Part shown: positions 3,733 to 31,263 of the stretch, in pieces | Position numbering within the stretch: position 1 is the stretch's first letter | Layout of the letters: every line of letters starts with the position of its first letter | NCBI GenBank assembly: GCA_001871445.1 | Contig: MNVD01000022.1 | Span: 1-46,383, forward strand | DNA from: Candidatus Magasanikbacteria bacterium CG1_02_41_34 | GTDB lineage: Bacteria > Patescibacteriota > Patescibacteriia > Magasanikbacterales > UBA922 | Reading direction: 5' to 3' | DNA length: 46,383 nt | Program-made: the position numbers and the translations under genes | The notes under the pieces: generated by a model | What the model was told of the DNA's origin: nothing | What the model saw: only the letters and a program-made list of their open reading frames with translations | Databases searched by the model: none

Positions 3733-3813
3733 AATTTCAAATTAAAAATTTCTAATAAAATGTTCAAATATTTGTCATTTTATTTTTGAATTGTGAACTA
3801 GAAATTTGTAATT
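3733..3813. repeat. Inverted pair of degenerate AATTTCA-type heptamer arrays
   Basis: AATTTCA AATTAAA AATTTCT AATAAAATG versus the reverse complement of 3776-3813, AATTACA AATTTCT AGTTCAC AATTCAA AAATAAAATG. Confidence 0.55.
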
Positions 3814-4762
3814 ACTCCTTTTTTCCAAACACACTTTCATATCTTTCCTCAAACTCTGCAACGGTAAATACATGATTTTGTGTGCCATATTTTTCAATAG
3901 CATACAGCGCTGCGATTGCACCTGTTTGTCCGCAGGTTTTCAGATCTTTTCCTTCTGCATATGATGAAAAGAATCCTGCACGATACGCATCGCCAGCACC
4001 TGTTGGATCTTCGACTGATTGTGCAGATGGTGCTGGGATTTCTATCATGTCGTCTTTTGTCGCGATGACAGAACCTTTGCTTCCAAGTGTTGTTATGAGC
4101 ACTTCCACATGGTTCATCAGCTCTCGTCCATCCCATCTTGTTTTTTCTTCCATCAATTTCATTTCATAATCATTGCCGATCAGCATTGTTGCTTGGCCAA
4201 TGATTGCCATGAGTTCCTGCGGTGAGAGTGTGGTGATTTGTTGGCCTGGATCAAAACAAAATGGAATGCCTGCTTCATAACATTCTTTTGCATGTTGTAC
4301 CATCACTTCTTTGGCACTTGGTCCAATGATGGCAAACGTTGGTTTTTCCGTCACATCTGCTACATGAAGTTCTGTTGATTCACTCCCAGCTCCTGGATAG
4401 AAGGCGGTAATCTGGTTGTCATCTTTATCTGTTGTAATGTATGCAGAAGAAGTAAAAAGTTCTTTGCTTGTGCGAATATAGGAAGTATTCATGTCGAGCT
4501 TTTTGAAATGATCTAGGTATGTATCTGCATCTTTGCCAAGTGCAGCAAAAACAATAGGGTCGGCACCAAGCAGTTTCATTGTGTAGCCGATATTTCCCGC
4601 AGTTCCACCAAAGTTTTTTTCGAGAGTATTAACGACAAAACTGACATTCAGCATATGAATGTGATCTGGGAGGATGTGGTTTTTGAAGCTGTCTGGAAAG
4701 TCCATAATGTAGTCGTATGCAAGGGAGCCTGAGACGAGAATCGGTGAAAAAGATGCATGCAT
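3812..4762 (-). CDS. PfkB-family carbohydrate/nucleoside kinase (adenosine kinase-like)
   Basis: GSLAYD, FGGTAGNI, DPGQQ, NDYE and DPTGAGDAYRAG motifs. Confidence 0.9.
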   Translation of the reverse strand: MHASFSPILVSGSLAYDYIMDFPDSFKNHILPDHIHMLNVSFVVNTLEKNFGGTAGNIGYTMKLLGADPIVFAALGKDADTYLDHFKKLDMNTSYIRTSKELFTSSAYITTDKDDNQITAFYPGAGSESTELHVADVTEKPTFAIIGPSAKEVMVQHAKECYEAGIPFCFDPGQQITTLSPQELMAIIGQATMLIGNDYEMKLMEEKTRWDGRELMNHVEVLITTLGSKGSVIATKDDMIEIPAPSAQSVEDPTGAGDAYRAGFFSSYAEGKDLKTCGQTGAIAALYAIEKYGTQNHVFTVAEFEERYESVFGKKE

Positions 4763-4895
4763 AGGTGAAAAAATATGTTGATTAAGCTATAATAGTAACA
4801 ATGTTGGATTGAATACGTCTTCTATAATAGAATGATTACCTCTTCTCTACAAGTATTGGCGAACCCGCCTAGGTATTGAGGGCGGTTTTCTGTTT

Positions 4896-6662
4896 ATGAA
4901 ACGAGTCACAAAACGAACATATCAAATATTTTGGCAACATGCGATACGGTATCCTGTGGCTTTTTTTGTCGTTATTTTTGGGGTGATCGCTGGATCGGTG
5001 GTCAATATGATACCACCGTTATTGTATCGAGATTTTTTCAATGTATTGCAAGTAACTGGCACGCCAAATGCGGACGTCGCGCATCAGTTGATTCAGATTC
5101 TTATAAAAATTCTTGGTGTGTTTGGGCTCAGTTGGGTGATTTGGAGAACCCTTCTTTTTACGAATAATTATTTTCAGCCACGCGTGATGCGAGATTTGTC
5201 GAACACGTGTTTTGCGTACATACACAAACATGCACCATCATTTTTTCACAATAATTTTGTCGGTTCATTGGTGAAGCGTGTAAATAAATTTTCTCGCTCA
5301 TTTGAAGGTATCGCTGATTTACTTACGTTCAATTTTATTCGTATTTTTGTCGATATCACTGTGGTGATGACCGTGTTATCGATGAACAATATCGTTTTTG
5401 GTGTGGCACTCGGCGTGTGGGTGGCTATTTTTCTCATCATGAATTATTTTTGGAGCATGTATAAGCTCAAATATGATGTGATGCGCAGTGGACAAGAATC
5501 AAAAGTTGTTGCAGTGCTTGCTGATACTATAACCAATCATGAAAATGTAAAGTTTTTGAATGGATATGCACGAGAGAAAACATATTTTGGTGTGGTCACA
5601 GAGCGTCTTCGATATCTCAATACACTGACATGGAATCTTGGACAAATATTTGAAACAGTGCAAGTATTACTTATGTTCCTTCTTGAATTTGTCATGATGT
5701 ATCTGGCTGTTGGATTTTGGCAAAAAGGACAATTGACTATTGGAGACTTTGTGTTGATCCAAGCGTACGTCATTACGACATTTGATAAACTGTGGGATGT
5801 GGGGAGATATATCAAAAATTATTATGAACACATTGCCGATGCAGAAGAGATGACATCAATTTTTGAAACGCCACACGAGATACAAGATATTCCAACGGCA
5901 ACTCCACTTGTTGTGTCAAAAGGAGAAATTGTGTTTGACAACGTGTCTTTTTATTACAACAAAACACGTTCTATCATGAAAAAGTTTTGTTTGACTATTT
6001 CATCTGGTCAGCGTATTGCCCTTGTAGGACACTCTGGTGCTGGGAAGTCCACGATTGTAAAGTTACTTCTCCGAACACACGATGTTACGCGTGGCAATCT
6101 CACCATTGATGGACAAAACATATCAGATGTGACGCTCGAAAGTTTGTGGCAGCATGTGAGTTATGTACCACAAGATCCTATTTTGTTTCACCGATCTATT
6201 ATTGATAACATTCGCTATGGGCGACCAGAAGCCACAGATGAAGAAGTCCATGATGCGGCGCGACTTGCGCATGCGCATCAATTCATCGAAAGTTTTCCAG
6301 AGAAATACGATACGTTTGTCGGAGAGCGTGGTGTGAAATTGTCTGGTGGAGAACGACAACGAGTTGCGATTGCGCGTGCGATTCTCAAAAACGCACCGAT
6401 TCTTATTCTCGACGAAGCAACATCCAGTCTTGATTCTGAATCAGAAAAATTGATTCAAGATGCGTTGCACAATTTGATGAAAGGTAAAACGGTTATTGTC
6501 ATTGCACATCGATTGTCGACGATTATGTCGATGGATCGTATTCTTGTTATAGAAGATGGAGAGATTGTTGAAGATGGAACACACAAACAACTTCTGAGAA
6601 AGAGTAAAGGGTTTTATCGAAGGCTCTGGGATTTACAGGCAGGTACATTTATTGGAGAATAA
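4896..6662 (+). CDS. ABC exporter, fused TMD-NBD (MsbA/MdlB-like)
   Basis: N-terminal TM helices, Walker A GHSGAGKS, signature LSGGERQR, ILILDEATS, IAHRLST. Confidence 0.95.
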   Translation: MKRVTKRTYQIFWQHAIRYPVAFFVVIFGVIAGSVVNMIPPLLYRDFFNVLQVTGTPNADVAHQLIQILIKILGVFGLSWVIWRTLLFTNNYFQPRVMRDLSNTCFAYIHKHAPSFFHNNFVGSLVKRVNKFSRSFEGIADLLTFNFIRIFVDITVVMTVLSMNNIVFGVALGVWVAIFLIMNYFWSMYKLKYDVMRSGQESKVVAVLADTITNHENVKFLNGYAREKTYFGVVTERLRYLNTLTWNLGQIFETVQVLLMFLLEFVMMYLAVGFWQKGQLTIGDFVLIQAYVITTFDKLWDVGRYIKNYYEHIADAEEMTSIFETPHEIQDIPTATPLVVSKGEIVFDNVSFYYNKTRSIMKKFCLTISSGQRIALVGHSGAGKSTIVKLLLRTHDVTRGNLTIDGQNISDVTLESLWQHVSYVPQDPILFHRSIIDNIRYGRPEATDEEVHDAARLAHAHQFIESFPEKYDTFVGERGVKLSGGERQRVAIARAILKNAPILILDEATSSLDSESEKLIQDALHNLMKGKTVIVIAHRLSTIMSMDRILVIEDGEIVEDGTHKQLLRKSKGFYRRLWDLQAGTFIGE

Positions 6663-6678
6663 TTCTCATGGAACACGT

Positions 6679-6716
6679 AACAAAAAACCACCAGCGTATG
6701 CTCGTGGTTTTTTGTT
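6679..6716. terminator. Bidirectional intrinsic terminator
   Basis: AACAAAAAACCAC-C-AGC-GTAT-GCT-C-GTGGTTTTTTGTT between convergent genes. Confidence 0.8.
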
Positions 6717-6720
6717 TGCA

Positions 6721-6756
6721 GACGACCGGCGGAGCGAGTGCTCTACGCCGGTCGTC
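6721..6756. other. GC-rich hairpin 3' of ORFan
   Basis: GACGACCGGCG-GAGC-GAGT-GCTC-TA-CGCCGGTCGTC, about 25 nt downstream of the stop at 6782. Confidence 0.7.
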
Positions 6757-6781
6757 AGAAGACGTCTTCCATGAGTCTTCG

Positions 6782-7225
6782 CTACATCACGATCTTCTCG
6801 AATTCGGCGAGGAACATCTGGATGTTCTTACTAAGTTCCTCCCTCCTACTGTCCTCATTCTCAGATTTGAGAAGGATTTGTAGCTCCGGCGAGGAACCAT
6901 CCTTACTCTTGAGTAGATCAACCATGTCGCGGATAGCCTGTTCTGGATCCTCACGTTCGTGTTGGGTTTTGATGAACGTTGTACCCCATTTGGCAAACAC
7001 GATGTGGCAGGTCCAGAGTGATGGCTGGGAATCATCCCACTCAGCACTTTCCATCAAACGGTCGGCAAGCGTGACAAAGACCAGGAACATCCATTCCCAG
7101 CCATGCTCTGGATTCCTTGTACCAAAGGTACGGTAGTAGCTCGGTTGGTTACCTTGCATTGCCTCGAAGGCGAGGTTAAAGATCTGTATGTCAGGGCGAT
7201 GGCGTACTCGCTGAAGCTTTTTCAT
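6782..7225 (-). CDS. Hypothetical protein (GC-rich ORFan)
   Basis: Open frame with SD GGGAGG 4 nt before the ATG at 7225 (MKKLQRVRH...). No recognisable domain. About 50% GC by spot count. Confidence 0.65.
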   Translation of the reverse strand: MKKLQRVRHRPDIQIFNLAFEAMQGNQPSYYRTFGTRNPEHGWEWMFLVFVTLADRLMESAEWDDSQPSLWTCHIVFAKWGTTFIKTQHEREDPEQAIRDMVDLLKSKDGSSPELQILLKSENEDSRREELSKNIQMFLAEFEKIVM

Positions 7226-7821: not shown

Positions 7822-7829
7822 GGTATACT
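7821..7829 (+). promoter_or_regulatory. Extended -10 promoter for the prepilin operon
   Basis: TGGTATACT (TGnTATACT). Similar motifs occur at 11991 and 26315. Confidence 0.55.
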
Positions 7830-7833
7830 CTCA

Positions 7834-7899
7834 TCACGAAATACATAGTATGTAGCATATAACATTTTTGTTACGTGTTACATGCTATGTGTTTCGTGA
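7834..7899. repeat. Heptamer-array hairpin (TAGCACG family), 31-bp stem
   Basis: TCACGAAATACATAGTATGTAGCATATAACA-TTTT-TGTTACGTGTTACATGCTATGTGTTTCGTGA: 26 Watson-Crick pairs, 4 G-U pairs, 1 mismatch. Confidence 0.85.
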
Positions 7900-7905
7900 A
7901 AATCA

Positions 7906-9867
7906 ATGCCTGTCATGAAAAACTTTCACCACACAATGCATGCATCGCAGCAACGAAAGCACGGCTTCAGTCTCCTTGAGATTGTGGTGGCTGTTGGTAT
8001 TTTTGCCATCTTTGTCATTGGAATTTATTCTGGTATCCAGTTTGTGTTCAAACTTGTGTACAATTCTCGAGTACGTATCATCGAAACGTCACTCCTCAAT
8101 GAACAAATTGAGGGTATTCGGAATATGTCATTTTATGATGTGGGTATTGTGAATGGAAGTCCTTCTGGTTTGCTCGAGCGTACTGTCACGACAACACGTA
8201 ATAATATTGATTTTGAAATCACGAGAACTATTCGAAATATTGATGATCCGTTTGATGGTGTTATTGATCCTGGTGGAGGAAGCAGTGGTGGAGAGTGTCA
8301 ACAATCACAAACTGAATTGTGTCACGACGGGAGCACCCTCTGTGTGGGGCAAAATGCTGTGCAAGGGCATTTGAATCATGGTGATACAGAAGGTGCATGT
8401 GGTGCAGATGACCCTGTTTTTGACAATCAACCATCAGATTACAAGTTCGTAGATGTAGAGATTCTATGTACATCGTGCAACCAGCAAGTGCCAGTATCGA
8501 TGTCTACATACCTTGCTCCAAAATTTTTGGAAGGTGATCCTACGCATGGTGCTTTATTTATTCATGTTATAAATGCAAGCGGACAGATAGTACAAGGAGC
8601 GACAGTTCATGTTGTTTCAACAATAACAAATCCAACATATAATTTTTATGACACCACAGATAATGATGGTAAACTTGCCGTGGTAGATCTTGCTGCCGGT
8701 ATCGCAGCCTATGATATTACCGTGACAAAAAATGGATATACCACAGATCAAACAGTATCCTCAACGGTGTCAAATCCAAATCCTACAAAACCATTTGGTA
8801 CGGTTATCGCACAAGATCTGACTGAACTTTATTTTACGATTGATGCCATTTCTGAAATGAGTGTACAAACACTCAATGCTTATTGTACTCCGATTGGATC
8901 GACAGGTATATCCCTTGTAGGGACAAAAAAAATAGGAACATCTCCAGATGTTCTCCTGACCGATCTTAGTGTCACAACAAATGGAAGTGGACAATATACC
9001 TTTAGTGATCTGGTGTGGGATACGTATCAGTTTGATGTATCTGGCTATGATATTATAGGATCTATTCCAAATGAACGTATTGATTTACTTCCTGGTGTAA
9101 CACAACCAGTGAGTCTTATCCTGGGTTCTGTATCTACCAATGCACTTCGTGTTGATGTGGTCGACAGCGTGACGGGGCAGCCAATTGCGGATGCAACTGT
9201 TCTTGTTACTTCGACGAGCTTTAGTCAAGAAAAAATTACCGGCGTTGGAACTGTTGGTCAGACCGATTGGTTTGGTGGGTCTGGTCAGGAAACAATTGGT
9301 GATGATGCACGATTTTTTGATGATGATAGTAATGTTGATGTACTTACTTCTGCAGGAAATATTACGTTGCGTGATATGTTGGGACAGTATGCAGCGAGTG
9401 GTTGGCTTGAATCGTCAACGTTTGATCTTGGTCTCAATGCTACATATCAAAATATTATTTGGGAGCCACTCAGTCAGCCAAGTGAAACAGGACTGAATTC
9501 GGTTCGTTTTCAAATTGCTACTGCAAATTCGACTTCTCCTAGCTCATGGAGTTACCTTGGGCCAGATGGTACGACTGGGTCATATTATACTACCATTGAT
9601 ACTGTTATTTCAGACGCCCACGATGGTGATAGATATATACGCTATATGGCATATATGAGTACGGCGTCGACAACATATACTCCAACTCTCTCAAACGTGT
9701 CATTCACCTATACAAATAGTTGCACACCACCAGGGCAGACATACTTTGGTGGATTATCTGCAACAGACTATACCGTAACGGTGAGTGCTACAGGATACGA
9801 ATCAGAGAGTAGTAATGTGACTGTTGGCGGATATACGAAATTAACGGTGTCATTGCAAGGATCATAA
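7906..9867 (+). CDS. Type IV prepilin-like protein with long beta-sandwich (carboxypeptidase-regulatory-like) C-terminal domains
   Basis: Prepilin site KHG|FSLLEIVVAVGIF; T/S-rich beta repeats such as TTDNDG, YDITVTKNGY and YTVTVSATGY. Exact start uncertain (7906, 7915 or 7936). Confidence 0.85.
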   Translation: MPVMKNFHHTMHASQQRKHGFSLLEIVVAVGIFAIFVIGIYSGIQFVFKLVYNSRVRIIETSLLNEQIEGIRNMSFYDVGIVNGSPSGLLERTVTTTRNNIDFEITRTIRNIDDPFDGVIDPGGGSSGGECQQSQTELCHDGSTLCVGQNAVQGHLNHGDTEGACGADDPVFDNQPSDYKFVDVEILCTSCNQQVPVSMSTYLAPKFLEGDPTHGALFIHVINASGQIVQGATVHVVSTITNPTYNFYDTTDNDGKLAVVDLAAGIAAYDITVTKNGYTTDQTVSSTVSNPNPTKPFGTVIAQDLTELYFTIDAISEMSVQTLNAYCTPIGSTGISLVGTKKIGTSPDVLLTDLSVTTNGSGQYTFSDLVWDTYQFDVSGYDIIGSIPNERIDLLPGVTQPVSLILGSVSTNALRVDVVDSVTGQPIADATVLVTSTSFSQEKITGVGTVGQTDWFGGSGQETIGDDARFFDDDSNVDVLTSAGNITLRDMLGQYAASGWLESSTFDLGLNATYQNIIWEPLSQPSETGLNSVRFQIATANSTSPSSWSYLGPDGTTGSYYTTIDTVISDAHDGDRYIRYMAYMSTASTTYTPTLSNVSFTYTNSCTPPGQTYFGGLSATDYTVTVSATGYESESSNVTVGGYTKLTVSLQGS

Positions 9868-9868: not shown

Positions 9869-10483
9869 ATGCATATTGAAATATTTTCAAAAAAAGGATT
9901 TACGCTTATGGAAGTTATGGTCGCCATCGGTATGTTTGCTATTATTTCTGTTGCCGTGGGATGGATTTTGATTCACAGTGTCAGATCAACAGATATTATT
10001 TGGGAGCAACTCGCCACGCAAAATGATGGGCGAGCAGCAGTGCAGCAATTTGTCGATGATGTCCGTCGTGCCGAAACTTCAAGTATAGGGAGTTATCCTA
10101 TATCTGATGCATCAAGTACATCCTTTGTTTTTTATGCAAATGTAGATAATGATAATAGTAGAGAAAAAGTACGTTTTTGGATTGATGGGACGGATTTGAA
10201 AAAAGGTGTGATCCAGCCAAGTGGGAATCCATTGAATTATGATGGAGAAGAATCCGTTATTACGATTGCAGAGTCAGTTGTAAATATTGCAAAAGGTATT
10301 GCACTTTTTGAATATTACGATAATACATATCCCGTTACATCAACACCACTGACAGTGCCTGATGCCCTGACGGATATTCGTATCATTCGTATGCAGCTAG
10401 AGCTAGAAAAAGATCCAACTGCGACACCAGTACCATTGCATGTAGAAGCGGTGGTGAATATACGAAATTTGAAAGATAACTAG
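9869..10483 (+). CDS. Type IV minor pilin (PilW/PulJ-like)
   Basis: KKG|FTLMEVMVAIGMF N-terminal methylation motif; ends VNIRNLKDN. Confidence 0.88.
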   Translation: MHIEIFSKKGFTLMEVMVAIGMFAIISVAVGWILIHSVRSTDIIWEQLATQNDGRAAVQQFVDDVRRAETSSIGSYPISDASSTSFVFYANVDNDNSREKVRFWIDGTDLKKGVIQPSGNPLNYDGEESVITIAESVVNIAKGIALFEYYDNTYPVTSTPLTVPDALTDIRIIRMQLELEKDPTATPVPLHVEAVVNIRNLKDN

Positions 10484-10484
10484 T

Positions 10485-10510
10485 CATGTTACGTGTTGTA
10501 TGTTTTTTGT
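10485..10510 (-). repeat. Short reverse heptamer array (TAGCACG family)
   Basis: CATGTTA CGTGTTG TATGTTT fills the spacer between stop 10483 and ATG 10511. Confidence 0.55.
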
Positions 10511-11999: not shown

Positions 12000-12024
12000 A
12001 CAAATAACCTAAATACACGAAGTT

Positions 12025-12897
12025 ATGTCAAAAAAACCACAGGTACGAAAAGGAGTGATTATTGTTGCAGGGCTTGGAACCCGTTTTCTTCCTGCCACAA
12101 AGGCGATGCCAAAAGAAATGCTTCCTATACTCGATAAGCCTGTCGTGCAATATATTGTCGAAGAAATGGTCGCGAGTGGGATCAGAGAAATTATTTTTGT
12201 TACGAGTTGGAACAAACGTTCTATCGAGGATCATTTTGATAGAAATCATGATCAAGAGTTTTTTCTCAAAGAACGTGGCAAGTATGATCGCATCGAAGCC
12301 CTCGTAGAACTTACCAAAAAAGTACAGTTTTTTTATACTCGACAATCTTCCCCAAAGGGGAATGGTGACGCCCTCCTCTGTGCAAAAGAATTTGTGGGCG
12401 ATGAGCCATTTGCATTTTCGGATGGTGATAGTGTAATTGATGCTAAAGTACCGGTTATTAAGCAACTGTTGAAAGTGTTTGATAAAAAGCAGGCATCTGT
12501 GATCGGTGCACAGCGACTCACTGATAAAGAAGCCATGACAAAATATGGCAATATCTATGGCAAACCTACTGGTGAAGATCGTATCTATCGAGTATCAAAA
12601 TTTGAAGAAAAACCTGACATTGAACATGTGTCCCCAGAAGGATTGATTGTTGGTGGCATGCGATATATTTTTACAAAAGATATCTGGCCATTTCTAGAAA
12701 AAGTTCGAAAAGGGAAAGATGGTGAACTTTGGGTAGCCGACGCTGCACACGCACTCGCACAAAAGAAAAAGTTTTTTGCCTACGAATACAATGGTCAGTA
12801 TTTTGATACTGGTGACAAACTGTCTCTCCTCAAAGCAACCCTTCATTTTGCGATGAAAGATGATGAAATACGAGAAGAACTTGGTGCATTTTTGTAA
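12025..12897 (+). CDS. galU: UTP--glucose-1-phosphate uridylyltransferase
   Basis: AGLGTRFLPATKAMPKEMLPI.DKP, SIEDHFD, FEEKP and DTGDK motifs. Confidence 0.92.
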   Translation: MSKKPQVRKGVIIVAGLGTRFLPATKAMPKEMLPILDKPVVQYIVEEMVASGIREIIFVTSWNKRSIEDHFDRNHDQEFFLKERGKYDRIEALVELTKKVQFFYTRQSSPKGNGDALLCAKEFVGDEPFAFSDGDSVIDAKVPVIKQLLKVFDKKQASVIGAQRLTDKEAMTKYGNIYGKPTGEDRIYRVSKFEEKPDIEHVSPEGLIVGGMRYIFTKDIWPFLEKVRKGKDGELWVADAAHALAQKKKFFAYEYNGQYFDTGDKLSLLKATLHFAMKDDEIREELGAFL

Positions 12898-12904
12898 TAG
12901 CTCT

Positions 12905-13777
12905 ATGGAAAACTGGTCCTGTCAATCAAAAAAAATATATTCATTTCAGAAAGTTTATTTTTTGGTTGTTGGATTCCTCTTTGCATGTTTTGCACTGCCT
13001 GGTATTGCTCATGCCGCAGTACTGGATTGGAATTGTGATCCGGGAAAAGAAATATGCTATATATTTCCTACTGCAGATGCAACAGAAAAGTCTGAGGAGT
13101 GTTTTGATAAAGCTGTCTCCAAGGCGTGGGGAACGCAAGATGCTCTACAAGAGGGGGAATTACTTCATTTTGAAATACCGATAGAAAATACTGGTGCAGT
13201 ACCACCTGTGTTTGCATGTTCAAATTGTGGCACTGAGGGATCGGTTTATAGATTTTATACTGAAGATAATACGGGGATTTTTGAAATAAATTTGGAGCAA
13301 AAAATTCTTAGAGATACACGAGCTGCAGTAGGGACAAGTCCGTATTATTACGCCAGATTTTTGTTGTCTGCGACAGTAACCAATACTGTCGCTGGAGTTG
13401 AAACTTCTGAAACGATATATGCAAATCTTTGTGCTGTGGTAAAAAAACCCGCACAAGTTGCTCCGCCAACTCAGCCGACAACAAAAGCACCTGTTGTTGA
13501 CGTAAAGTCTACCTTTCCTTCTATTACAGATTTGAACCCACTGAGGGCCACGTCTGTTCCGACCCTTTTTGGTCGTGGTATAACTATTTTGCTTGGTGTA
13601 CTTGGGAGTATTGCTATTCTCATTTTTATCTATGGTGGTATGCTCTGGATGACATCAATGGGGAATGCAGACCAAGCAGGAAAAGCATTGAAGACGATTG
13701 TCTGGGGAGCTATGGGCGTATTTGTTATATTTGCAAGTTATGCGGTTGTACAGTTTGTGCTGGATGCATTTAAATAG
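12905..13777 (+). CDS. VirB2/TrbC-like pilin-domain protein with N-terminal extracellular domain
   Basis: Signal peptide (..IAHA) and C-terminal IYGGMLWMTSMGNADQAGKALKTIVWGAMG two-TM hairpin. Confidence 0.8.
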   Translation: MENWSCQSKKIYSFQKVYFLVVGFLFACFALPGIAHAAVLDWNCDPGKEICYIFPTADATEKSEECFDKAVSKAWGTQDALQEGELLHFEIPIENTGAVPPVFACSNCGTEGSVYRFYTEDNTGIFEINLEQKILRDTRAAVGTSPYYYARFLLSATVTNTVAGVETSETIYANLCAVVKKPAQVAPPTQPTTKAPVVDVKSTFPSITDLNPLRATSVPTLFGRGITILLGVLGSIAILIFIYGGMLWMTSMGNADQAGKALKTIVWGAMGVFVIFASYAVVQFVLDAFK

Positions 13778-13816
13778 CACGTAACACATAGCACGTAGCA
13801 CGTAGCACGTAACACA
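13775..13816 (+). repeat. Tandem heptamer array, 6 units
   Basis: TAGCACG TAACACA TAGCACG TAGCACG TAGCACG TAACACA. The first TAG is the pilin stop codon. Confidence 0.95.
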
Positions 13817-13823
13817 TTTTTGC

Positions 13824-13898
13824 ATGATGAATACGAGAAATGCATTTCATGATAAACTAAAGAAGTTGATACAATTTCACGTAACACATATCACGTAG
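13824..13898 (+). pseudogene. Truncated 5' remnant of a four-helix-bundle gene
   Basis: MMNTRNAFHDKLKKLIQ versus MGEGFHEKLKRLIH of the downstream gene; 23/29 nt identical; runs into the repeat array and stops. Confidence 0.75.
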
Positions 13899-13944
13899 CA
13901 CATAGCACGTAACATGTAGCACGTAGCATGTAACATATAACAAA
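13875..13944 (+). repeat. Tandem heptamer array, 10 units
   Basis: TTTCACG TAACACA TATCACG TAGCACA TAGCACG TAACATG TAGCACG TAGCATG TAACATA TAACAAA. Confidence 0.95.
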
Positions 13945-13947
13945 AAT

Positions 13948-14313
13948 ATGGGGGAGGGGTTTCATGAAAAGTTAAAAAGGTTGATTCATGAATATATACG
14001 TTTGAGCTATGTTCATACCAAAAAGTATCCAGCAGATGAGAGGTTTGGACTTACATCACAAGATAGAAGAGCCGCTGTATCAGTGATGTCAAATTATGTA
14101 GAAGGGCACGGAAGAATAAAGATTGGATCCAAACAGAATTTTTATGAAATATCATTTGCATCACTAAAAGAATCCATTTATTGTAGATTTTTAGCACAAG
14201 AGCTTTTGTATATAACGAAAGAGGAATACACAAAAGCGTTTGCTCTAAAAGACGAGATAGCGGCCATGCTGTATACTACGATTAAGGGATTAGAAAAAGA
14301 CAAAAGTACATAG
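13948..14313 (+). CDS. Four-helix-bundle protein (23S rRNA IVP / bAvd-like family)
   Basis: TKKYPADERFGLTSQDRRAAVSVMSNYVEGHGR...FYEISFASLKE matches the family pattern FP..E.YGL.SQ.RRAA.S...NIAEG. Confidence 0.92.
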   Translation: MGEGFHEKLKRLIHEYIRLSYVHTKKYPADERFGLTSQDRRAAVSVMSNYVEGHGRIKIGSKQNFYEISFASLKESIYCRFLAQELLYITKEEYTKAFALKDEIAAMLYTTIKGLEKDKST

Positions 14314-14416
14314 AACACATAACACGAAACACATAACAACACGAAACACATATCACGTAGCACGTAACACGGTGCCACAAGAAGTGTTATGTGTTATGTG
14401 TTACGTGCTACGTGAA
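14313..14416. repeat. Forward plus reverse heptamer arrays forming a hairpin
   Basis: Forward array 14313-14371 and reverse array 14384-14416. Perfect 18-bp inverted repeat TCACGTAGCACGTAACAC (14353-14370) / GTGTTACGTGCTACGTGA (14398-14415). Confidence 0.93.
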
Positions 14417-14422
14417 TATCCT

Positions 14423-15802
14423 ATGAGAACGAAATACCTCACAATACTTCTTACCATGCTTAGCATAACCGCCCTGGCTGGTTTCGGTTGCAAAGGACTT
14501 TCTCAAACAGAGCAAGCATCTATCAAACCAATCACGCTGACATACTGGACAGTCTTCGATGATGTTGGACAGCTCCAAAAATTTGCAGCAGCCTACAAGA
14601 AAACACGTCCATACGTGACAGTAAATATCCGACAGATTCGCTACGAAGAATTTGATGATTTGTTTACCAATGCGCTGGCAGATGATATCGGGCCAGATGT
14701 TGTGTCCATGCATGTGCGCTGGCTTGGCAAGTATGAGGCACGTCTCGATCCGATGCCTGCGTCCGTCAATGTATCTGATGTAGAGATCACTGGTAGTCAA
14801 TTTTCAGAGCAGATCATCGTCACGCCACGAACCAATCCTATGCCAAGTATTCGTGGGCTTGAGTCCAATTTTATTGGGACAGTGGCGAGTGATGTGGTCA
14901 TCCGAAATCAGATCTATGGTCTTCCACTTGCACTTGATACACTCGCATTATATTACAATAAAAAAATTCTCGATAAAGCTGGTATCGCAGAGCCACCAAC
15001 ATCGTGGACAACGTTTCTCGATGATGTAAAAAAAATTACACGTGTAAATGGAGTAGGAGATATTATTCAGTCTGGTGTACCGATGGGGACAGGGAATAAT
15101 ATCGACAATGCTACAGATATTTTTGCACTGCTTCTCTTGCAAAATGGGGTGGATGTGGTCAAAGATGGTACTGTTGTATTTGCTGGTGGCATAGACCGAG
15201 CAGCGTCAAATCATCCGACACTCGAGGCATTACGATTTTATACTGATTTTGCCCGTCCGACAAAAGAAGTCTATAGTTGGAATGAAAAACAAACAGATGC
15301 ATTTACCGCCTTTACGCAAGGAAGAGCGGGATTTTTCTTTGGCTTTGCATACGATTTTCCTCGCATAAAAAGTCGTGCCCCACAGCTCGCTATTGAAGTG
15401 ATCCCTGTGCCTCAGCTCAATGACAATGCACCGGTAAATGTAGCAAATTATTGGGTGGAGAGTGTTGTAAAGAAAACAAAGCATCGAGACGAAGCGTGGG
15501 ATTTTATCCGTTTTATGACGACGCCTGAGAATATCAAAATATATACAGACGCGACAAAGCAGCCGTCGCCGCTCAGGGCGCATGTCGCTGCGCAGCAAGA
15601 AGATCCGGAGCTTGGTCCGTTTGTGCAGGGTATCCTTACGGCGAAAAACTGGTATACTGGGAGAGATATAGATAAAGCAAATATTGCGATTGAAAACCTT
15701 ATGTTGCAGTATCTTTTGCCGTATGCAGATGGGCAAAATGCATTGAAAAGAGATGCCCAGCTTATCATTAATGCTGCGACAATAGTACAGCAAACGTTGT
15801 AG
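14423..15802 (+). CDS. Extracellular solute-binding lipoprotein (family 1, sugar-binding-like)
   Basis: Lipoprotein-like signal ..ALAGFGC; GPDV, IYGLPL..DTLALYYNK, PPTSW and AWDFIRF motifs. Upstream GTG extension is only repeat sequence. Confidence 0.88.
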   Translation: MRTKYLTILLTMLSITALAGFGCKGLSQTEQASIKPITLTYWTVFDDVGQLQKFAAAYKKTRPYVTVNIRQIRYEEFDDLFTNALADDIGPDVVSMHVRWLGKYEARLDPMPASVNVSDVEITGSQFSEQIIVTPRTNPMPSIRGLESNFIGTVASDVVIRNQIYGLPLALDTLALYYNKKILDKAGIAEPPTSWTTFLDDVKKITRVNGVGDIIQSGVPMGTGNNIDNATDIFALLLLQNGVDVVKDGTVVFAGGIDRAASNHPTLEALRFYTDFARPTKEVYSWNEKQTDAFTAFTQGRAGFFFGFAYDFPRIKSRAPQLAIEVIPVPQLNDNAPVNVANYWVESVVKKTKHRDEAWDFIRFMTTPENIKIYTDATKQPSPLRAHVAAQQEDPELGPFVQGILTAKNWYTGRDIDKANIAIENLMLQYLLPYADGQNALKRDAQLIINAATIVQQTL

Positions 15803-15805: not shown

Positions 15806-17224
15806 ATGAGAATATCGAATTTATCAATAAATAAAAGTAGATTACTTTGGGTAAGTATATTAGGATTTTTTTTGTTTTTTCCCTCTGATGATGCTCGAGC
15901 TTTGGCAAGCATTCCAACGACCTGTAAAAATATCCCAGGACAAAGTTCTGATGTACAAATAGGGCATTATTTTGCTTTTATCAATCAACCAATTACACTT
16001 CAAGAAAGAGAACAATTTTTAAATACAGATGGTGCAGATATTCCACCTATAAAATATGTAGATAGTTTTGATTGTATATACAAAGCTAATACATCAGGAT
16101 ATATAACTTTTGCTGATCTATTGAGCTCACATTTAATACCAATGGATTGGCAACAAAATCACCCAAATTTTTTAACAAATTATTATTGGCCTGAGTTGAG
16201 AACGGGCAAGTATGGTGTTAATGATCCTGATCATCAGTTTGAGTTATTGTTATCTACTTATTTTAATATCAAACCTCCTGTTGCCCCTGCAGCTGGAGTC
16301 AATGATGCCATCAAAGCTCGGATTTTTTATACTATTAGAGATGGTAATCAAGAGAAAGGATATTTATTTTTTCTTGGAGATACAGAACACCAAGTAGCTA
16401 TTTCTCTTGGAACATGGAGTGGTAAAGTGATAACCATCTCAAAAGGAGAAAAAAAGACTTTTAAGGTGGAACTAACTACGGATGTTACCGGAGTAAAAAT
16501 TACGTGTGAAAATTGTGCTGATCAGGCTATTATTATTTCACCTTCATCAGAAAACACTCCGAATGTTGTTCTTTTAACATTGGATGAAACAAAAATAAAA
16601 ACTCCTTTGATCATTCTAAAAGCTCAAAAAGGAGCTTTTGTTGACCAATATTCTTTAACCGTGAATATAGTCGATGTTGAATGCAGCGCTCTCTCTGAAG
16701 GAGAATGTGCAACAAATAGCTTTTGTTTCTCTTTTGAGAAAGAATGTATTGCTAAAACAAGAAATATCGAATGTGTGAAAGTCCCAAAAGCTCTTTGTGG
16801 TACAAAAGAAGGGTCTTCATATTGTACATATCTCGAAGCAACAAATACGTGTACAGACTATCTCAGTAGTGCATATCAAAGTTCGTATAAACCACCCAAC
16901 GCAGGTGATTACAAAGGGCCGCTCCCTCCTTGTGCGTTTGATGGAAGCTGTCGGAATGTCAATGATCTCATCCAACTGTTTATCAATTTTGGAAAGATGA
17001 CACTTGGAATTGTTGGTTCTGCTGCATTGATATTTTTTGTATACGGTGGTTTCATGATGATCATTTCTGCTGGAAATGCGGAGCGTGTGAAAAAGGGAAG
17101 GGATATTCTCGTTGCAGCAATTGTCGGCATTGTGATCGCATTTAGTGCGTATGCCCTTATCAACTTTGTCCTCGATGCACTGAACGTATCGGAGGATTTT
17201 CGTGTGATTGAAGAAATCAAATAA
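15806..17224 (+). CDS. Large VirB2-like pilin-domain protein with Cys-rich region
   Basis: Signal peptide, Cys-rich stretch, C-terminal FVYGGFMMIISAGNAERVKKGRDILVAAIVG. Confidence 0.8.
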   Translation: MRISNLSINKSRLLWVSILGFFLFFPSDDARALASIPTTCKNIPGQSSDVQIGHYFAFINQPITLQEREQFLNTDGADIPPIKYVDSFDCIYKANTSGYITFADLLSSHLIPMDWQQNHPNFLTNYYWPELRTGKYGVNDPDHQFELLLSTYFNIKPPVAPAAGVNDAIKARIFYTIRDGNQEKGYLFFLGDTEHQVAISLGTWSGKVITISKGEKKTFKVELTTDVTGVKITCENCADQAIIISPSSENTPNVVLLTLDETKIKTPLIILKAQKGAFVDQYSLTVNIVDVECSALSEGECATNSFCFSFEKECIAKTRNIECVKVPKALCGTKEGSSYCTYLEATNTCTDYLSSAYQSSYKPPNAGDYKGPLPPCAFDGSCRNVNDLIQLFINFGKMTLGIVGSAALIFFVYGGFMMIISAGNAERVKKGRDILVAAIVGIVIAFSAYALINFVLDALNVSEDFRVIEEIK

Positions 17225-17228
17225 TATA

Positions 17229-17383: not shown

Positions 17384-19093
17384 ATGACGCCAAACTTTAT
17401 AAACACAAAACAATCATTCATCTACGCACTTCTTGTCTTCGGATTGTTTTTGTTTCCGCAGCGTGTTTTTACTGCACTGCCAACGCCAGTGACGACGACC
17501 CCGGAATCCAAGTACACGTTCTATACATATATCTCAACCTGTAGCGATACGGACAAAGTATTTCCTGGTGAGTTTACAGGTAACAAGGCTAGTCAAAGTA
17601 AAAAAGTGGGTATTGTCGTTCCTAGGAGTATACCTCACAGCGAAATTACGTATATTTATTTTCATGGGAATGATGAGTTACCTGTTGAAGATATCTGTAA
17701 TGGATCACGATATAAGATATGTGATACTGCTGTTGCATTGGGAGCCCCGATGATTATTCCACAAACTGCGGTAAATGGTTCTTCAAAAAAAACAACGCGT
17801 ACTACCAAAGAAGAATTCGAATGTGTTATGAATGAAGCATACGATGTCTTGGTTTCAAAAGGTATTTCTTCACAAAAAAATTATATTGTGGCAGGGCATA
17901 GTGGTGGTGCATTTACGATGAGTAGTTATTTTATTGCAGGTTTGATAGCGCAAAAGGCGATTGTACTAGATGGATGTTATGTGACAGATCCTCCAAATCC
18001 AAATCCACCGGCAAATTTCTGTCAGGATATTATTGCCAATTTTGCTGGTCCTGTAGATTTTTATTATCAGACCCTTTCTAGTTCTGGTGAAACAGCTGGG
18101 ACACGAGTTGAAACTCTAAAAACTGTTGCCATAGCACACCCTGGTGGAGCTCTCACTGCAAAAAAAGTAAACCTTACACATTATCAACTTCCTACTGCCT
18201 GTCTCAAAGACGCTACTACTTGTGAAAATCATGTAGTAGTGGACAGTGGTACTAGTGGTGGTGACACTTCTTCTGGGGGGGCATCGGGTGGAACATCTTC
18301 TGGTGGCACGACGGCACCAAAAGGACCAACGTACACAGGCAACGAGCTTCCTATTCATACGGTTGAGCTTGTCAATCCTATAAAAGGAAATGTTACAGAT
18401 TTCCGTATTATTTTTGGAAATGTTGTTCAAAAGCTCATGGCAATTATTGGAGCTGTTACACTGGTCGTCTTCATCATTGGTGGTGCATATTGGCTCCTCT
18501 CTGCCGGCAATCCAGAGCGCGTCAAAAAGGGTACCGAAACTATGGTCTGGGCTGCGATAGGATTGTTTGTTGTCTTTGGGGCGTATGGAATTTTGAGTGC
18601 AGTGATTGGAGGGTTGACGGGGAGATCTGTAGTGGATAGTGGTGCGCCGACAAATTCGAGTGATGTTCATCTCATCACTGGGTATGTAAAAATTATCAAT
18701 CAAAAAACCCTTATCATGTCTGAACCAAAATCAAATGTCACGGCAAAGGGAACATTGAATCCTAATACGGATTGTGTGCCCGTAACAGGAAAAAAACAAA
18801 ATGGGTTTTCAGAAGTAAGAGATCCAAAAAATCTTGCATTGTATGGCTGGGTACTCGATGGATCTATTGTACAAACAACAGCTCAATGTGGAGGAGATCA
18901 GTCTACCGCTCCTTCTCAAGATACACAAAATACAGGAAAGTGCGTCTGCACTATCAAAGATGATACGACGGGTGATACCTCACAAACAGCTATTCCAAAT
19001 GTAGATAGTCCAGCAGAATGTGTAACTACATCATTGCAAAGTCCTATTGTTGGAACAAGTATTAGTGGTTGTTCTTGGCAAACAACAAATTAA
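17384..19093 (+). CDS. Pilin-domain fusion: alpha/beta-hydrolase-like domain, G/S linker, VirB2-like pilin, C-terminal domain
   Basis: IYFHG, VAGHSGGA nucleophile elbow and VLDG; then FIIGGAYWLLSAGNPERVKKGTETMVWAAIG. Confidence 0.75.
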   Translation: MTPNFINTKQSFIYALLVFGLFLFPQRVFTALPTPVTTTPESKYTFYTYISTCSDTDKVFPGEFTGNKASQSKKVGIVVPRSIPHSEITYIYFHGNDELPVEDICNGSRYKICDTAVALGAPMIIPQTAVNGSSKKTTRTTKEEFECVMNEAYDVLVSKGISSQKNYIVAGHSGGAFTMSSYFIAGLIAQKAIVLDGCYVTDPPNPNPPANFCQDIIANFAGPVDFYYQTLSSSGETAGTRVETLKTVAIAHPGGALTAKKVNLTHYQLPTACLKDATTCENHVVVDSGTSGGDTSSGGASGGTSSGGTTAPKGPTYTGNELPIHTVELVNPIKGNVTDFRIIFGNVVQKLMAIIGAVTLVVFIIGGAYWLLSAGNPERVKKGTETMVWAAIGLFVVFGAYGILSAVIGGLTGRSVVDSGAPTNSSDVHLITGYVKIINQKTLIMSEPKSNVTAKGTLNPNTDCVPVTGKKQNGFSEVRDPKNLALYGWVLDGSIVQTTAQCGGDQSTAPSQDTQNTGKCVCTIKDDTTGDTSQTAIPNVDSPAECVTTSLQSPIVGTSISGCSWQTTN

Positions 19094-19652: not shown

Positions 19653-19686
19653 TATACGAGACCTTGCGTGTGCAGGGTCTCGTATA
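19653..19686 (+). other. 15-bp hairpin after the probable major pilin, no U tract
   Basis: TATACGAGACCTTGC-GTGT-GCAGGGTCTCGTATA. Confidence 0.75.
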
Positions 19687-19747
19687 CCGCAAGGTTGTAC
19701 ATTTTCCCGTGAATAGTATTCAAAAGAAAGTGTATAATCATCTTTTT

Positions 19748-20134
19748 ATGAAACGAACTCTTGTCTTTCTCACTCTCCTTATTGTTGGATTTTTTGGACT
19801 TATGCATGCATTTCCTGTGTTTGCTGCTGACCCACTGGGTGTCAATTATGGTGCAGCCAGTGGACTCTCTGGTCAGGACCTTCGTGTGAGTATCGCACGG
19901 GTGATCAAGTTTATATTGAGTTTTCTTGGTATTATTTTTGTCATCCTCACACTCTATGCAGGCTTCATGTGGATGACATCTGCCGGCAATGAAGATAGAG
20001 TTGGTACAGCAAAGAAAATTCTCTGGGGCGCGATTATCGGCCTGGCTATCATATTGTTTTCCTATGCGATCACCCAGTTTGTGATTACAAATTTGTACGA
20101 AGTGTCGACAAGTCAGTCGTATACTACACCATAA
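19748..20134 (+). CDS. VirB2/TrbC-like pilin
   Basis: Signal ..PVFA; LYAGFMWMTSAGNEDRVGTAKKILWGAIIG. Confidence 0.85.
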   Translation: MKRTLVFLTLLIVGFFGLMHAFPVFAADPLGVNYGAASGLSGQDLRVSIARVIKFILSFLGIIFVILTLYAGFMWMTSAGNEDRVGTAKKILWGAIIGLAIILFSYAITQFVITNLYEVSTSQSYTTP

Positions 20135-21629: not shown

Positions 21630-21727
21630 GAATGAGTGAATTTGGGGTATACTTGTTGTACTGTACAAATTACAAATATCGTTGGTAACGAGCTTACGTT
21701 CATCACCCTTTTCTTACTTGGTTTGTT

Positions 21728-24381: not shown

Positions 24382-24412
24382 AACATAACTGTTTTTTGAC
24401 CATTCATTTTAT

Positions 24413-29106: not shown

Positions 29107-29145
29107 AAATGTGGTAGTATACTTTACAGAGTTTTCACGTTATAT

Positions 29146-30288
29146 ATGGTTGCACGTAGACAGCAAACAACTCAATCAAGTCAATCCGTAGGATTTTATA
29201 AATTTGTTGCGTTGATTTTTTTGGCTATTACCCTGATTTTGTTTGGGGTAATTGTATTTATGTCTTCAAAGCGCGCTGTGATTACGATTACTACACGCCC
29301 AGAGCCTGTAGATATTACCACCACCATTGGTGTGAACTCGGATAGTGCTCGCACTATCTCTGGGAGAGTCGTTACTACTACTCTAAGTGGCACAAACACA
29401 TATTATCCGACAGGAAATAAAGAAGAACTGGGAGTATCACAAGGTACAATGACAATTCACAATGAAACATCTCTTGATCAACCGCTTATTGCGACGACAA
29501 GATTGTTGTCTTCAGACGGTGTCCTGTTTCGTCTCAAAGAGCGTGTGCTGGTCCCAGCAGGTGACACAGTAAAAGCAAGTGTGTATGCAGATCAAGAGGG
29601 ATCCAGAAGCGATATTGGTCCTACAAAATTTACTATTCCTGGGTTGAATGACGCAAAGCAGTCTGTTATCTATGGAACCAGTGATACTGCTATGTCTGGT
29701 GGTATTCGCAAGATAGGATCTGTGAGTCAGGATGATGTTGATAAAGCAAAAAAATTATTAGCTGAAGAGTTGAAAGATGATGCAAAAGCATCTCTTGCAG
29801 AACAAGTAGACAGTGAGTTATCTCTTGCTGTGTACGATGTTTCTGATCCTACGTATACAGTTGGGGCGACGATAGGAGAAGAAGTAAGTGAATTTACCCT
29901 CTCTGCAAAAATGACAGTTGTTGGGGTGTTCTTTTTACCAGATGACGTACAAACACTTGCAAGCGATGTCCTCATGAGTCGAGCAATTGACGATGCTGAA
30001 TATATAGAGCCAAGTGATGCTGCACCTGTTGTAACTCTTAAATCTTATGACCTTGTGCGTGAAGAAGCAGAGCTCGATGTTACCTATACTGGGAGAGCAA
30101 CAATAAATCCAGAAAGTCGTCAACTTTCAAAAATTGCTTTTTACGGGAAAACAAAAGATGAAGTACGTCGATATTTACTCTCACTCGATCATGTCTATGG
30201 TGTAGATGTGCATTTCAGACCAGCATGGACGCAGACGATCCCACACGTAGCAGATCATGTTGATATTGTAGTGAAGCAGGTGGAGTAG
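29146..30288 (+). CDS. Single-TM protein with baseplate-J-like domain (CPR type)
   Basis: N-terminal TM; GTMTIHN..DQPLIATTRL, VYADQEG..DIGP..FTIPGL and MSGG pattern recalled from CPR baseplate-J-like proteins. Confidence 0.65.
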   Translation: MVARRQQTTQSSQSVGFYKFVALIFLAITLILFGVIVFMSSKRAVITITTRPEPVDITTTIGVNSDSARTISGRVVTTTLSGTNTYYPTGNKEELGVSQGTMTIHNETSLDQPLIATTRLLSSDGVLFRLKERVLVPAGDTVKASVYADQEGSRSDIGPTKFTIPGLNDAKQSVIYGTSDTAMSGGIRKIGSVSQDDVDKAKKLLAEELKDDAKASLAEQVDSELSLAVYDVSDPTYTVGATIGEEVSEFTLSAKMTVVGVFFLPDDVQTLASDVLMSRAIDDAEYIEPSDAAPVVTLKSYDLVREEAELDVTYTGRATINPESRQLSKIAFYGKTKDEVRRYLLSLDHVYGVDVHFRPAWTQTIPHVADHVDIVVKQVE

Positions 30289-30329
30289 AGTTTTAGATAT
30301 TTACAGTGTTAGGTAATTAGAGTATTAGA
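30289..30329 (+). repeat. Degenerate octamer array (GTATTAGA type)
   Basis: GTTTTAGA TATTTACA GTGTTAGG TAATTAGA GTATTAGA begins right after stop 30288. Confidence 0.6.
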
Positions 30330-30336
30330 ATAATAT

Positions 30337-30362
30337 AAAAACACACGGTTTGTGTGTTTTTT
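30337..30362. terminator. Bidirectional intrinsic terminator
   Basis: AAAAACACAC-GGTTT-GTGTGTTTTTT. Confidence 0.7.
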
Positions 30363-30785: not shown

Positions 30786-30900
30786 GGGTTTCTCCATGGA
30801 ACGCGTCTCGGGAAAATTTGCCTAAACCTGCTCTCCCGAAAGCATGGCCAGGGGAAAAGACTTGTGAGAGTGCTTTCCTCTGTACATGCATTGATAGCAG

Positions 30901-30929
30901 AATATAGCAGTGTTATATAGTTTTGTCAA
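30901..30929 (-). promoter_or_regulatory. Sigma70 promoter for the ORFan
   Basis: Minus strand TTGACA-17 nt-TATATT with extended TG. Confidence 0.65.
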
Positions 30930-30937
30930 TGCATCTC

Positions 30938-30966
30938 TTGACAAGGTTTATGCTTCTCAGTAAGAT
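30938..30966 (+). promoter_or_regulatory. Sigma70 promoter for the thrS leader
   Basis: TTGACA-17 nt-TAAGAT. Confidence 0.65.
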
Positions 30967-30991
30967 GATTCTATACAGAGTATTCAATACG

Positions 30992-31176
30992 CATGTTGGT
31001 AGGACCTGAAAGAGAGAGGAAGCCTTGGCTGGAAGCTTCCTTCAGGAACACCCCATTCATGTACCAAGGATACGCGCCGTACGACAATTTTGATGAGTAC
31101 AATCTCGGGTGGAACCGTCCTATTATATATAGTAGGGCCCCGGCAAATGTCAGTATTGATGTTGTGCCGTTTTTTT
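30992..31176 (+). promoter_or_regulatory. T-box riboswitch (Thr specifier)
   Basis: Stem I (CATG/CATG, TGG/CCA, CCTGAA/TTCAGG) with AGAGA and GCTG boxes; specifier loop GAACACC with ACC = Thr (31050-31052); T-box GGGTGGAACCG (31107-31117); terminator CGGCA...TGCCG-T7. Confidence 0.85.
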
Positions 31177-31188
31177 ATTTTTACTCGA

Positions 31189-31257
31189 GTCTTAGGGTTT
31201 TAGAGGATTAGGTATTTGATTATTCCTAACGCTCTAATACTCTAACATCTAACATCT
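31189..31257. repeat. Inverted octamer arrays (hairpin) before thrS
   Basis: GTCTTAGG GTTTTAGA GGATTAGG ... CCTAACGC TCTAATAC TCTAACA TCTAACATCT. Confidence 0.7.
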
Positions 31258-31263
31258 GTACAT

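Follow-up and report, generated by a model that had tools for sequence, protein, structure and literature searches.

Periodic repeat arrays at gene borders in a Magasanikbacteria genome and their likeness to intervening-sequence elements

Heptamer repeats at gene borders have been described in several bacterial groups, and the present study concerns comparable periodic arrays, mostly arranged as inverted pairs, in Candidatus Magasanikbacteria bacterium CG1_02_41_34, a member of the candidate phyla radiation (CPR). The window is the whole stretch of DNA that was analysed (46,383 nt, MNVD01000022.1) and constitutes the entire contig C5 of a 1.04-Mb genome in 36 contigs, labelled G000. The TAACTGA direct repeats of marine Beggiatoaceae, Cyanobacteria and Bacteroidetes (MacGregor 2015, PMC4679880) are reported as tandem intergenic 7-nt units, most of which end a few nucleotides (modally 1 nt) before a start codon, while some overlap the end of the upstream open reading frame (ORF). 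Forward repeats stop all three frames, for which three units suffice, as noted by MacGregor; Shine-Dalgarno (SD) motifs are rare downstream, and insertions and deletions occur in 7-nt steps (PMC4679880). The GGGAATC/GGGGAYT heptamers of Xanthomonas and Nostoc (PMC4692102) lie mostly 0-50 bp from an ORF end in a strand-dependent manner, some of them over stop codons, and their array length varies between close relatives. Dispersed intergenic hairpin repeats of the repetitive extragenic palindrome (REP)/bacterial interspersed mosaic element (BIME) type in Escherichia coli have a sizeable share of copies 1-20 nt from the 3' end of an upstream ORF, and those REP hairpins that lie under 16 nt from a stop have an effect on translation, as summarised in PMC12306157. 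An ORF-bearing intervening sequence (IVS) of the 23S rRNA gene of Coxiella burnetii, encoding S23p and described as a selfish element, combines a PF05635-family ORF within complementary termini with tandem stem heptamers (GACAGAT) of variable copy number, and is cut by RNase III at the first GACAGAT heptamer (Warrier et al. 2016, PMC4990558).

Much of the positional behaviour reported below has already been published for REP elements and for two heptamers, TAACTGA and GGGAATC, and each of these systems differs from the present one. As described in PMC4679880, TAACTGA repeats have one unit sequence, are direct repeats without predicted structure apart from one inverted case, have no cargo and occur in other phyla, whereas the arrays described here comprise many unit families, form mostly inverted pairs with long stems, are linked to PF05635 and reside in a CPR genome. 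The GGGAATC/GGGGAYT repeats are G-rich, quadruplex-forming direct repeats for which the relevant passages of PMC4692102 give neither inverted pairs nor an association with mobile elements, and the REPs, in the summary of PMC12306157, are imperfect palindromes of about 35-40 nt with one consensus, hundreds of copies and an association with REP-associated tyrosine transposases (RAYTs); they show no 7-nt period internally, carry no gene as cargo and are not tied to start codons. The Coxiella IVS lies in helix 45 of 23S rRNA and its excision by RNase III is demonstrated (PMC4990558), while the present elements lie between or before protein genes and their processing is putative. What is new is the inverted arrays that bridge stop to start in a CPR genome, the many unit families and periods, the tie to PF05635 and the matched empty sites; a literature search, outside which supplementary tables fell, found no description of inverted periodic arrays or of such cassettes in CPR. 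The TAACTGA-type features of heptamers near a start, stops in three frames and no SD are found together in single arrays (20132 and 30286 of the window, C28:33773, C18:15087, C1:26263 and others), and the TAACTGA unit itself is absent among the consensus units from Tandem Repeats Finder (TRF) and lag-7 self-similarity.

An earlier note on the window had proposed that periodic repeat hairpins run from a stop codon to just before the next start codon. All 12 stop and array-end coordinates on which it relied are correct in the sequence: six stops lie inside an array or 0-4 nt before one, and six arrays end 0-8 nt before an ATG (Table 1). Arrays with periods of 7, 14 and 21 nt were found at these places by TRF and confirmed by direct reading of the sequence. 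ATG 14423 and ATG 17384 are supported by congeners with empty sites, which keep the same N-terminus 7-15 nt past the upstream stop. Three unrelated unit families, designated A, B and C, obey the rule in the window and many more do so genome-wide; the two-unit motif of family A alone occurs 27 times in the window versus 0.24 expected. The claim that the arrays form hairpins held at four sites, which fold strongly (7834-7899, -41.8 kcal/mol, z -11.9; 14353-14415, -35.5 kcal/mol, z -4.2; 17243-17372, -38.4 kcal/mol, z -3.9; 31187-31249, -21.1 kcal/mol, z -3.0), and not elsewhere: 3733-3813 is a weak pair (-11.8 kcal/mol, z -2.0), and the three remaining sites, being single arrays or remnants, gave no hairpin by folding (30286, z -0.3; 20132, z -0.8; 10485, z +1.2).

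Gene borders of the whole genome were then compared with the arrays. G000 has a GC content of about 41 % and 985 genes at 88 % coding density according to our own hexamer-based gene caller. Gene starts were set without reference to the arrays, the first in-frame ATG of the stop-to-stop ORF being taken in each case; start refinement with the hexamer model overshot by 30-90 nt (14372 became 14456, where homology indicates 14423) and so was not used. Periodic segments were detected by lag-7 self-similarity and TRF and merged into 89 arrays, 56 of which are not deep inside ORFs and are distributed over 43 of the 870 gene junctions. Lag 7 yielded 75 segments (42 intergenic), and lags 4, 5, 8, 10 and 11 yielded 13, 13, 31, 15 and 9, respectively; lags 6, 9 and 12 reflect mostly coding periodicity. 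An element was scored as hugging a boundary when its end fell within -25 to +10 nt of the ORF boundary, after exclusion of four in-ORF cases, and expectations were taken from a conservative null in which the element may slide across its entire spacer and 25 nt further into the ORF on either side. Among all elements, 30 of 39 hug a boundary versus 19.5 expected (P 5e-6). The comparison of array-to-boundary distances with a spacer-length null, which the earlier note had set as a check, also reveals an excess where the slack of the spacer exceeds 60 nt: 17 of 26 elements there hug a boundary versus 7.0 expected (P 1.5e-5), nine of them at a stop and eight at a start, and restriction to elements of at least 25 nt gives 14/18 versus 5.3 expected.

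It is very improbable that this pattern is a trivial outcome of short spacers or of chance. The earlier note was right that short spacers produce part of it, 13 of the 39 elements lying where the null probability of hugging is at least 0.55, and array-free co-directional spacers are short (median 38 nt, 42 % of them at most 20 nt). Short spacers explain the pattern in part and not fully. Only 1.6 % of array-free intergenic insertion points fall in spacers of at most 20 nt, an insert placed uniformly would have an 11 % chance of lying no more than 10 nt from a boundary, and the excess under the sliding null in long spacers is accompanied by replication in a second genome and in 22 cassettes. 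The second genome, G062, is from a different family and has 37 % GC; in the 400 kb analysed, elements with more than 60 nt of slack hug a boundary in 8/14 cases versus 4.5 expected at period 7 (P 0.04) and in 18/33 versus 10.9 expected at periods 7-10 (P 0.006), and control periods of 5 and 11 gave 4/6 versus 2.2 expected (P 0.11, small n). The boundary pattern replicates more weakly in the G062 family than in G000. In addition, 28 PF05635 cassettes were taken from 15 other genomes of the order, and strict local alignment with a score of at least 15 for inverted arms called clear inverted periodic arms in 22 of them (period 7 in 12, period 8 in five, period 9 in three and period 10 in two). 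A same-strand upstream stop lies within -25 to +20 nt of the 5' arm in 16 of the 22 (inside the arm in nine), a same-strand first ATG lies within -25 to +20 nt of the end of the 3' arm in 15, and both are present in 11; the neighbour is convergent in three (one at +1 nt), and the upstream neighbour is divergent in four. The other four cassettes of G000 (on C30, C7, C26 and C18) likewise span stop to ATG, the arm period of the C30 cassette being about 9 nt.

The elements are gained and lost between close relatives, as insertions or deletions in operon spacers that natively measure 4-15 nt. Three genomes of the same genus (G001-G003, 70-85 % nucleotide identity) are syntenic with the window, and junctions (J) in these congeners were anchored on the flanking proteins. 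At J14, a cassette of ~640 nt (13775-14414 of the window in G000) is present in G000 and G003, and the site is empty in G001 (TAG + 14 nt + ATG AGA AAG AAA TAC) and in G002 (15 nt). At J16, an element of ~160 nt is present in G000 and G003, and G001 is empty with a 7-nt spacer (TAA GTGACGT atg). A 119-nt hairpin with the unit GTAATTN occupies J22 in G003, where G000 is empty with 4 nt (TAA TACT atg), and a 516-nt cassette occupies J11 in G003, with none in G000. The 20132 site (J19) holds a 573-nt four-helix-bundle cassette in G003, a three-unit array in G000 and a 14-nt spacer in G002, and the 10484 site (J10) holds a 388-nt four-helix-bundle cassette in G002, a 59-nt element in G003 and a reverse-arm remnant in G000. 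The flanking genes are intact in congeners without the element. In G003, the native stop at both J11 and J19 is displaced by one codon and its replacement comes from the array (gag ACA TAA CAC versus gag TAA), and copy number at the same locus differs between G000 and G003.

The explanation preferred here, to which about half of our confidence is given, is that the arrays are IVS-like selfish repeat elements that persist only where gene borders are permissive and that RNase III probably cuts. The arrays would be arms, or remnants of arms, of IVS-like periodic-repeat elements, which may occur as cassettes with a four-helix-bundle gene, as gene-less hairpins or as single arrays, and which would survive only at the gene borders of a streamlined genome without SD motifs, that is, at or over a stop codon or a few nucleotides before a start. 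The unit nearest the stop carries TAA or TAG, so that an array closes all three frames within 21 nt and an insert on a stop codon costs at most ~7 codons. Complementary arms, with stems of 19-30 bp by folding, would pair in the transcript (predicted energies -30 to -49 kcal/mol) and exclude the insert as a loop, which would leave stop and start ~6-14 nt apart, as at empty sites. In the cassette of the window, F1 folds with 14376-14418 at -49.0 kcal/mol and F2 with the reverse arm at -48.6 kcal/mol (30-35 bp). The paired arms may offer RNase III a long stem, a step proposed by analogy with the IVS of Coxiella as described in PMC4990558 and from the presence of an rnc gene. In that case the positional rule is the footprint of tolerated or targeted inserts and is not evidence for a dedicated translational switch.

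The stop side of the arrays agrees with tolerance of this kind. Read in the sense of the gene, 17 of 22 stop-adjacent arrays close all three frames, with a mean of 2.64 frames closed versus 1.0 in antisense and 0.83 stop triplets per 7 nt versus 0.34. The stop-rich units are unrelated to one another (CACGTAA, ATAGCAN, TAGGTNT, AATAAAC, GTAGAAT and TGATYAG), and in 11 of the 22 the stop of the gene itself is part of the repeat. As 7 and 3 share no common factor, every frame meets a stop within three units (21 nt), so that the start of an array at a stop is in part automatic. The exception is a family-A hairpin lying in frame within mnmA (C28:43060-43136, minus-strand ORF, PF03054 at 252 bits), where it adds 11 residues to a variable loop relative to five relatives; the frame stays open because the would-be stopping unit reads CACGAAT. 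The mnmA copy is an argument for insertion at other places too, with selection acting as the filter. Heptamer periodicity in the loop is clear only in G000, is weak and built of other units in G001 and G002, where it ranks in the top 3-4 % of windows, and is absent in G003-G005.

A less probable alternative, though one to which a real minority of our confidence goes, is that arrays or hairpins before starts have a function in translation, acting in SD-independent initiation or keeping termination-reinitiation coupling, either through a stem that brings the stop beside the AUG or through a repeat-binding protein that recruits or blocks ribosomes. The genome is SD-less, and the earlier note correctly observed that the flanked genes show no SD motif; this is nevertheless the norm of the genome and not specific to array genes, since GGAG or GAGG occurs at -18 to -4 in 18 of 634 genes (2.8 %) versus 25/634 in a control window. 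As a separate observation, A (0.04) and G (0.02) are very rare at position -1 of the 634 ATG starts, with an enrichment of A from -14 to -4, a start context unlike that of SD-using bacteria. A translational function would accord with the eight start-hugging arrays in long spacers, whose ends lie -1 to +9 nt ahead of the first in-frame ATG, with the residual stop-to-start distance at occupied co-directional sites, which equals that at empty sites, and with the same proposal having been made for TAACTGA repeats in PMC4679880. The J8 leader carries a hairpin at the same place in three congeners, of the same family in G003 and of different sequence in G001.

Several results stand against translation as the purpose of the arrays. 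Occupancy in G000 is 8/81 at convergent junctions versus 30/700 at co-directional and 1/89 at divergent ones, and in G062 (periods 7-10) it is 9/39 versus 44/273 and 9/38, respectively. The earlier note, which read the hairpins as possible translational-coupling switches, had named equal frequency between convergent genes, together with reporters showing no effect, as an outcome contradicting that reading; since occupancy is no lower at convergent than at co-directional junctions, coupling fails by the note's own measure of convergent genes, and the positional rule itself stands. Each gene of the convergent pair at C32:21306-21556 has its stop 1 nt from an arm, and elements elsewhere adjoin tRNA genes, touch only a stop or stand behind promoter-like boxes. 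Congeners without an element keep the same genes. The mismatches within the arms (G.U against A.C) are neutral as to strand, with 35 G.U pairs in sense versus 34 in antisense and the sense fold being more stable in 10/16; sense is favoured by 12-13 kcal/mol in the elements of the window and antisense by 21 kcal/mol at C36:80.4k.

Processing punctuation, in which RNase III cuts the stems and so splits operon mRNAs into units of different stability or frees the cargo mRNA, as in rRNA IVS, is a rather unlikely primary role. Stems of 19-30 bp lie exactly between ORFs, an rnc gene is present in G000 (134 bits), and RNase III excises the Coxiella IVS at the first heptamer repeat in the account of PMC4990558. 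The arrays at 3733-3813, 20132 and 30286 nonetheless occupy the same positions and cannot be RNase III substrates, and the comparison of sense and antisense is neutral. The RNase III gene (C36:30314-31075, minus strand) is itself followed, 6 nt past its stop, by an ATAGCNN heptamer array (C36:30282-30307).

Birth in situ, whereby polymerase slippage on a heptamer containing the native stop or the nucleotides before a start would generate single arrays, is improbable as a general explanation. Arrays born in this way would necessarily start or end at ORF borders because the founding heptamer includes those nucleotides. Many locus-specific units do each contain a local stop (such as TAAACAA/TAAGCAA at 20132 or AACCTAG/AATCTAG at C34:87109), copy number at one locus differs between G000 and G003, and slippage is cited in PMC4692102 as an explanation of heptamer excess. 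Slippage cannot, however, yield inverted arms, 90-nt cores or gene cargo, and family A recurs at no fewer than nine loci.

Some observations weigh against the selfish-element explanation or its details. No target-site duplication or target motif is visible in the three occupied/empty pairs, and the bias may come either from uniform insertion followed by selection or from targeted insertion at stops. The start-hugging arrays of long spacers fit a role in initiation as well as they fit tolerance, and different hairpins stand at the one J8 leader position across congeners. At 17220-17460, which comprises the J16 element and the first ~25 codons of a pilin-like gene, G000 and G003 are 95-100 % identical, while the upstream flanks are 65-90 % and the next 150 nt 25-55 % identical; this could reflect constraint on the element, or a recombination tract. 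In each of the nine family-A hairpins it is the 5' arm that bears the stops, on both strands alike, so that the asymmetry of arms in G000 leans on copies that are not independent. A stop-rich 5' arm was rejected as a general design, being a tendency only among the 22 independent cassettes (5' arm stop-richer in 14, 3' arm in six; 0.70 versus 0.49; Wilcoxon P 0.17). The gene calls are home-made.

The arrays of the window and their settings are listed in Table 1. The cargo gene scores 75.6 bits against a PF05635 cut-off of 33.8, and its cassette lies between the protein genes 12860-13777 and 14423-15802 and not in an rRNA helix; no part of the window matches an Rfam family, rRNA included, at the gathering score. 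An SD of the cassette gene's own was rejected in the window, where GGGGGAGGGG at 13950-59 falls within the ORF; cassettes have an SD only at J11 of G003 (AAGGAGG) and on C30 (AAGGGGG). Between F1 and F2, the translation of 13842-13883 resembles residues 4-17 of the cassette's own four-helix-bundle protein (7/14 identical, E 0.005 in a tiny database) and may be a relic of an older cassette broken by a newer one.

Table 1. Periodic arrays and associated features of the window
Feature	Position	Strand	Setting
Family A arrays, units CACGTAA, CACGTAG, CACATAG	7834-7899, 13775-13817, 13878-13942, 14314-14371, 14384-14414, 17229-17262, 17353-17378		
Family B arrays, units TTAGAGN, other arm CTAAYAY	30286-30334, 31187-31257		
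Family C arrays, units AATTTCN	3733-3813		
AU-rich array pair (AATTTCN)	3727-3811	-	Fills spacer from stop 3814-3812 to ATG 3726; weak hairpin
Near-perfect heptamer hairpin of 30 bp, family A (CACRTAR)	7834-7899	+	Leader of pilin-like gene 7906-9867 (ATG 7906)
Reverse-type family-A remnant, ~3 units	10484-10510	+	Between stop 10481-10483 and ATG 10511; no hairpin
Cassette forward array F1	13775-13817	+	First triplet TAG (13775-13777) is the stop of gene 12860-13777
Cassette forward array F2	13878-13942	+	From TRF and sequence
Cassette cargo gene, PF05635 23S rRNA-intervening-sequence protein (four-helix bundle), 121 aa	13948-14313	+	Pfam 75.6 bits, E 4.3e-21
Cassette forward array F3	14314-14371	+	Begins directly after cargo gene stop (14311-14313)
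Cassette reverse array R	14384-14414	+	Ends 8 nt before ATG 14423 of solute-binding-protein gene
Gene-less element	17229-17378	+	Forward arm 17229-17262, 90-nt core, reverse arm 17353-17378; from stop 17222-17224 to ATG 17384
Single forward array TAAACAA TAAGCAA TAAACAA	20132-20153	+	Includes stop (20132-20134) of gene 19664-20134; no hairpin
Single array, units TAGAGTN/TTAGATN	30286-30334	+	Starts with stop TAG 30286-30288; no hairpin
Family-B hairpin (31187-31249) and CTAACAT array	31187-31257	+	Ends 6 nt before thrS ATG 31264

The junction at 3727-3811 holds a related element in G002, and a terminator-like stem (30337-30361) lies 3' of the single array 30286-30334. The 7834-7899 hairpin (J8) has no preceding stop; upstream of it are an inverted repeat with a T-run and a TGGTATACT box, which is a reading by eye, a sigma-70 consensus scan having found no site near 7834. 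Several spacers share a TGgTATACT-like box (extended -10-like), which is also kept in congeners (~7825-7833, 12000-12010, 21650-21660, 24385-24395 and 29120-29130); it was not reported by the same scan.

Other identities were considered for these features and set aside. The hairpins are not intrinsic terminators, as no terminator-like call was made at 7834-7899 and the sequences after hairpins are AAAATCA, AATATCC and AAAAAT. The structured-looking leader of thrS (30990-31140) was not accepted as a T-box (RF00230 at 15.1 bits versus a gathering score of 93, E 0.35), and the cores of gene-less elements were not accepted as decayed four-helix-bundle genes, the J16, C36, C32 and C25 cores giving no tblastn match at E<=10. 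The Y1 transposase was rejected as mobiliser of the arrays in the manner of a REP-RAYT system, PF01797 being multi-copy and the GC-rich end hairpins of its element being non-periodic and unrelated to the arrays. This IS200/IS605-like element (PF01797 Y1 transposase) has 27 partial matches, at 3-267 of the window and at 26 other places, nearly all at contig ends; its copies break the assembly and lie directly 3' of ...TTTT(T)ATTC, just behind terminator-like stems.

Two further repeat types accompany the heptamer elements. A GC-rich hairpin repeat (GGAGTGACGAACGCAAGTTCGTT...) recurs inside or beside them in G000, G002 and G003 (G000:C36:73010-73090; L014 ~4525-4611; junction 21 of G003). A periodic family with AAGATTG/CAATCTT arms round a conserved core occurs at G000:C28:5040-5290, at C32:21340-21520, where it is nested in the C32 heptamer element, and at L022 8084-8218; it is also present at junction 27 of G002 and G003, and none is found there in the window.

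For annotation, the arrays have consequences at both ends of a gene. Start-adjacent arrays (16 in number) carry 0.74 ATG, GTG or TTG triplets per 7 nt in sense versus 0.19 in antisense; because of this richness ORF finders over-extend genes into the arrays, as at 14372 (true start 14423) and C36:80396 (80504), with in-frame GTG and ATG of reverse arms lengthening the ORF calls, and forward arms replace native stops and alter C-termini. J14, J16 and J22 are matched occupied and empty alleles for direct tests of RNase III processing and of translation.

A bolder interpretation, to which only a small part of our confidence extends, is that in SD-less CPR bacteria complementary arms serve as operon punctuation on which the translation system depends. 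Through looping or RNase III cutting, the next AUG would come to lie 6-14 nt away from a ribosome that is terminating, or from a newly made 5' end. SD pairing would then give way to reinitiation or to initiation on a short leader, and mobile four-helix-bundle cassettes would seed such signals genome-wide. The findings join three separate literatures, those on heptamer simple-sequence-repeat excess, on REP-like hairpins at stops and on rRNA IVS with their orphan four-helix-bundle protein, and periodic arrays mark ORF borders in Patescibacteria independently of the unit sequence and, in relatives, of the exact period (7 to 10 nt).

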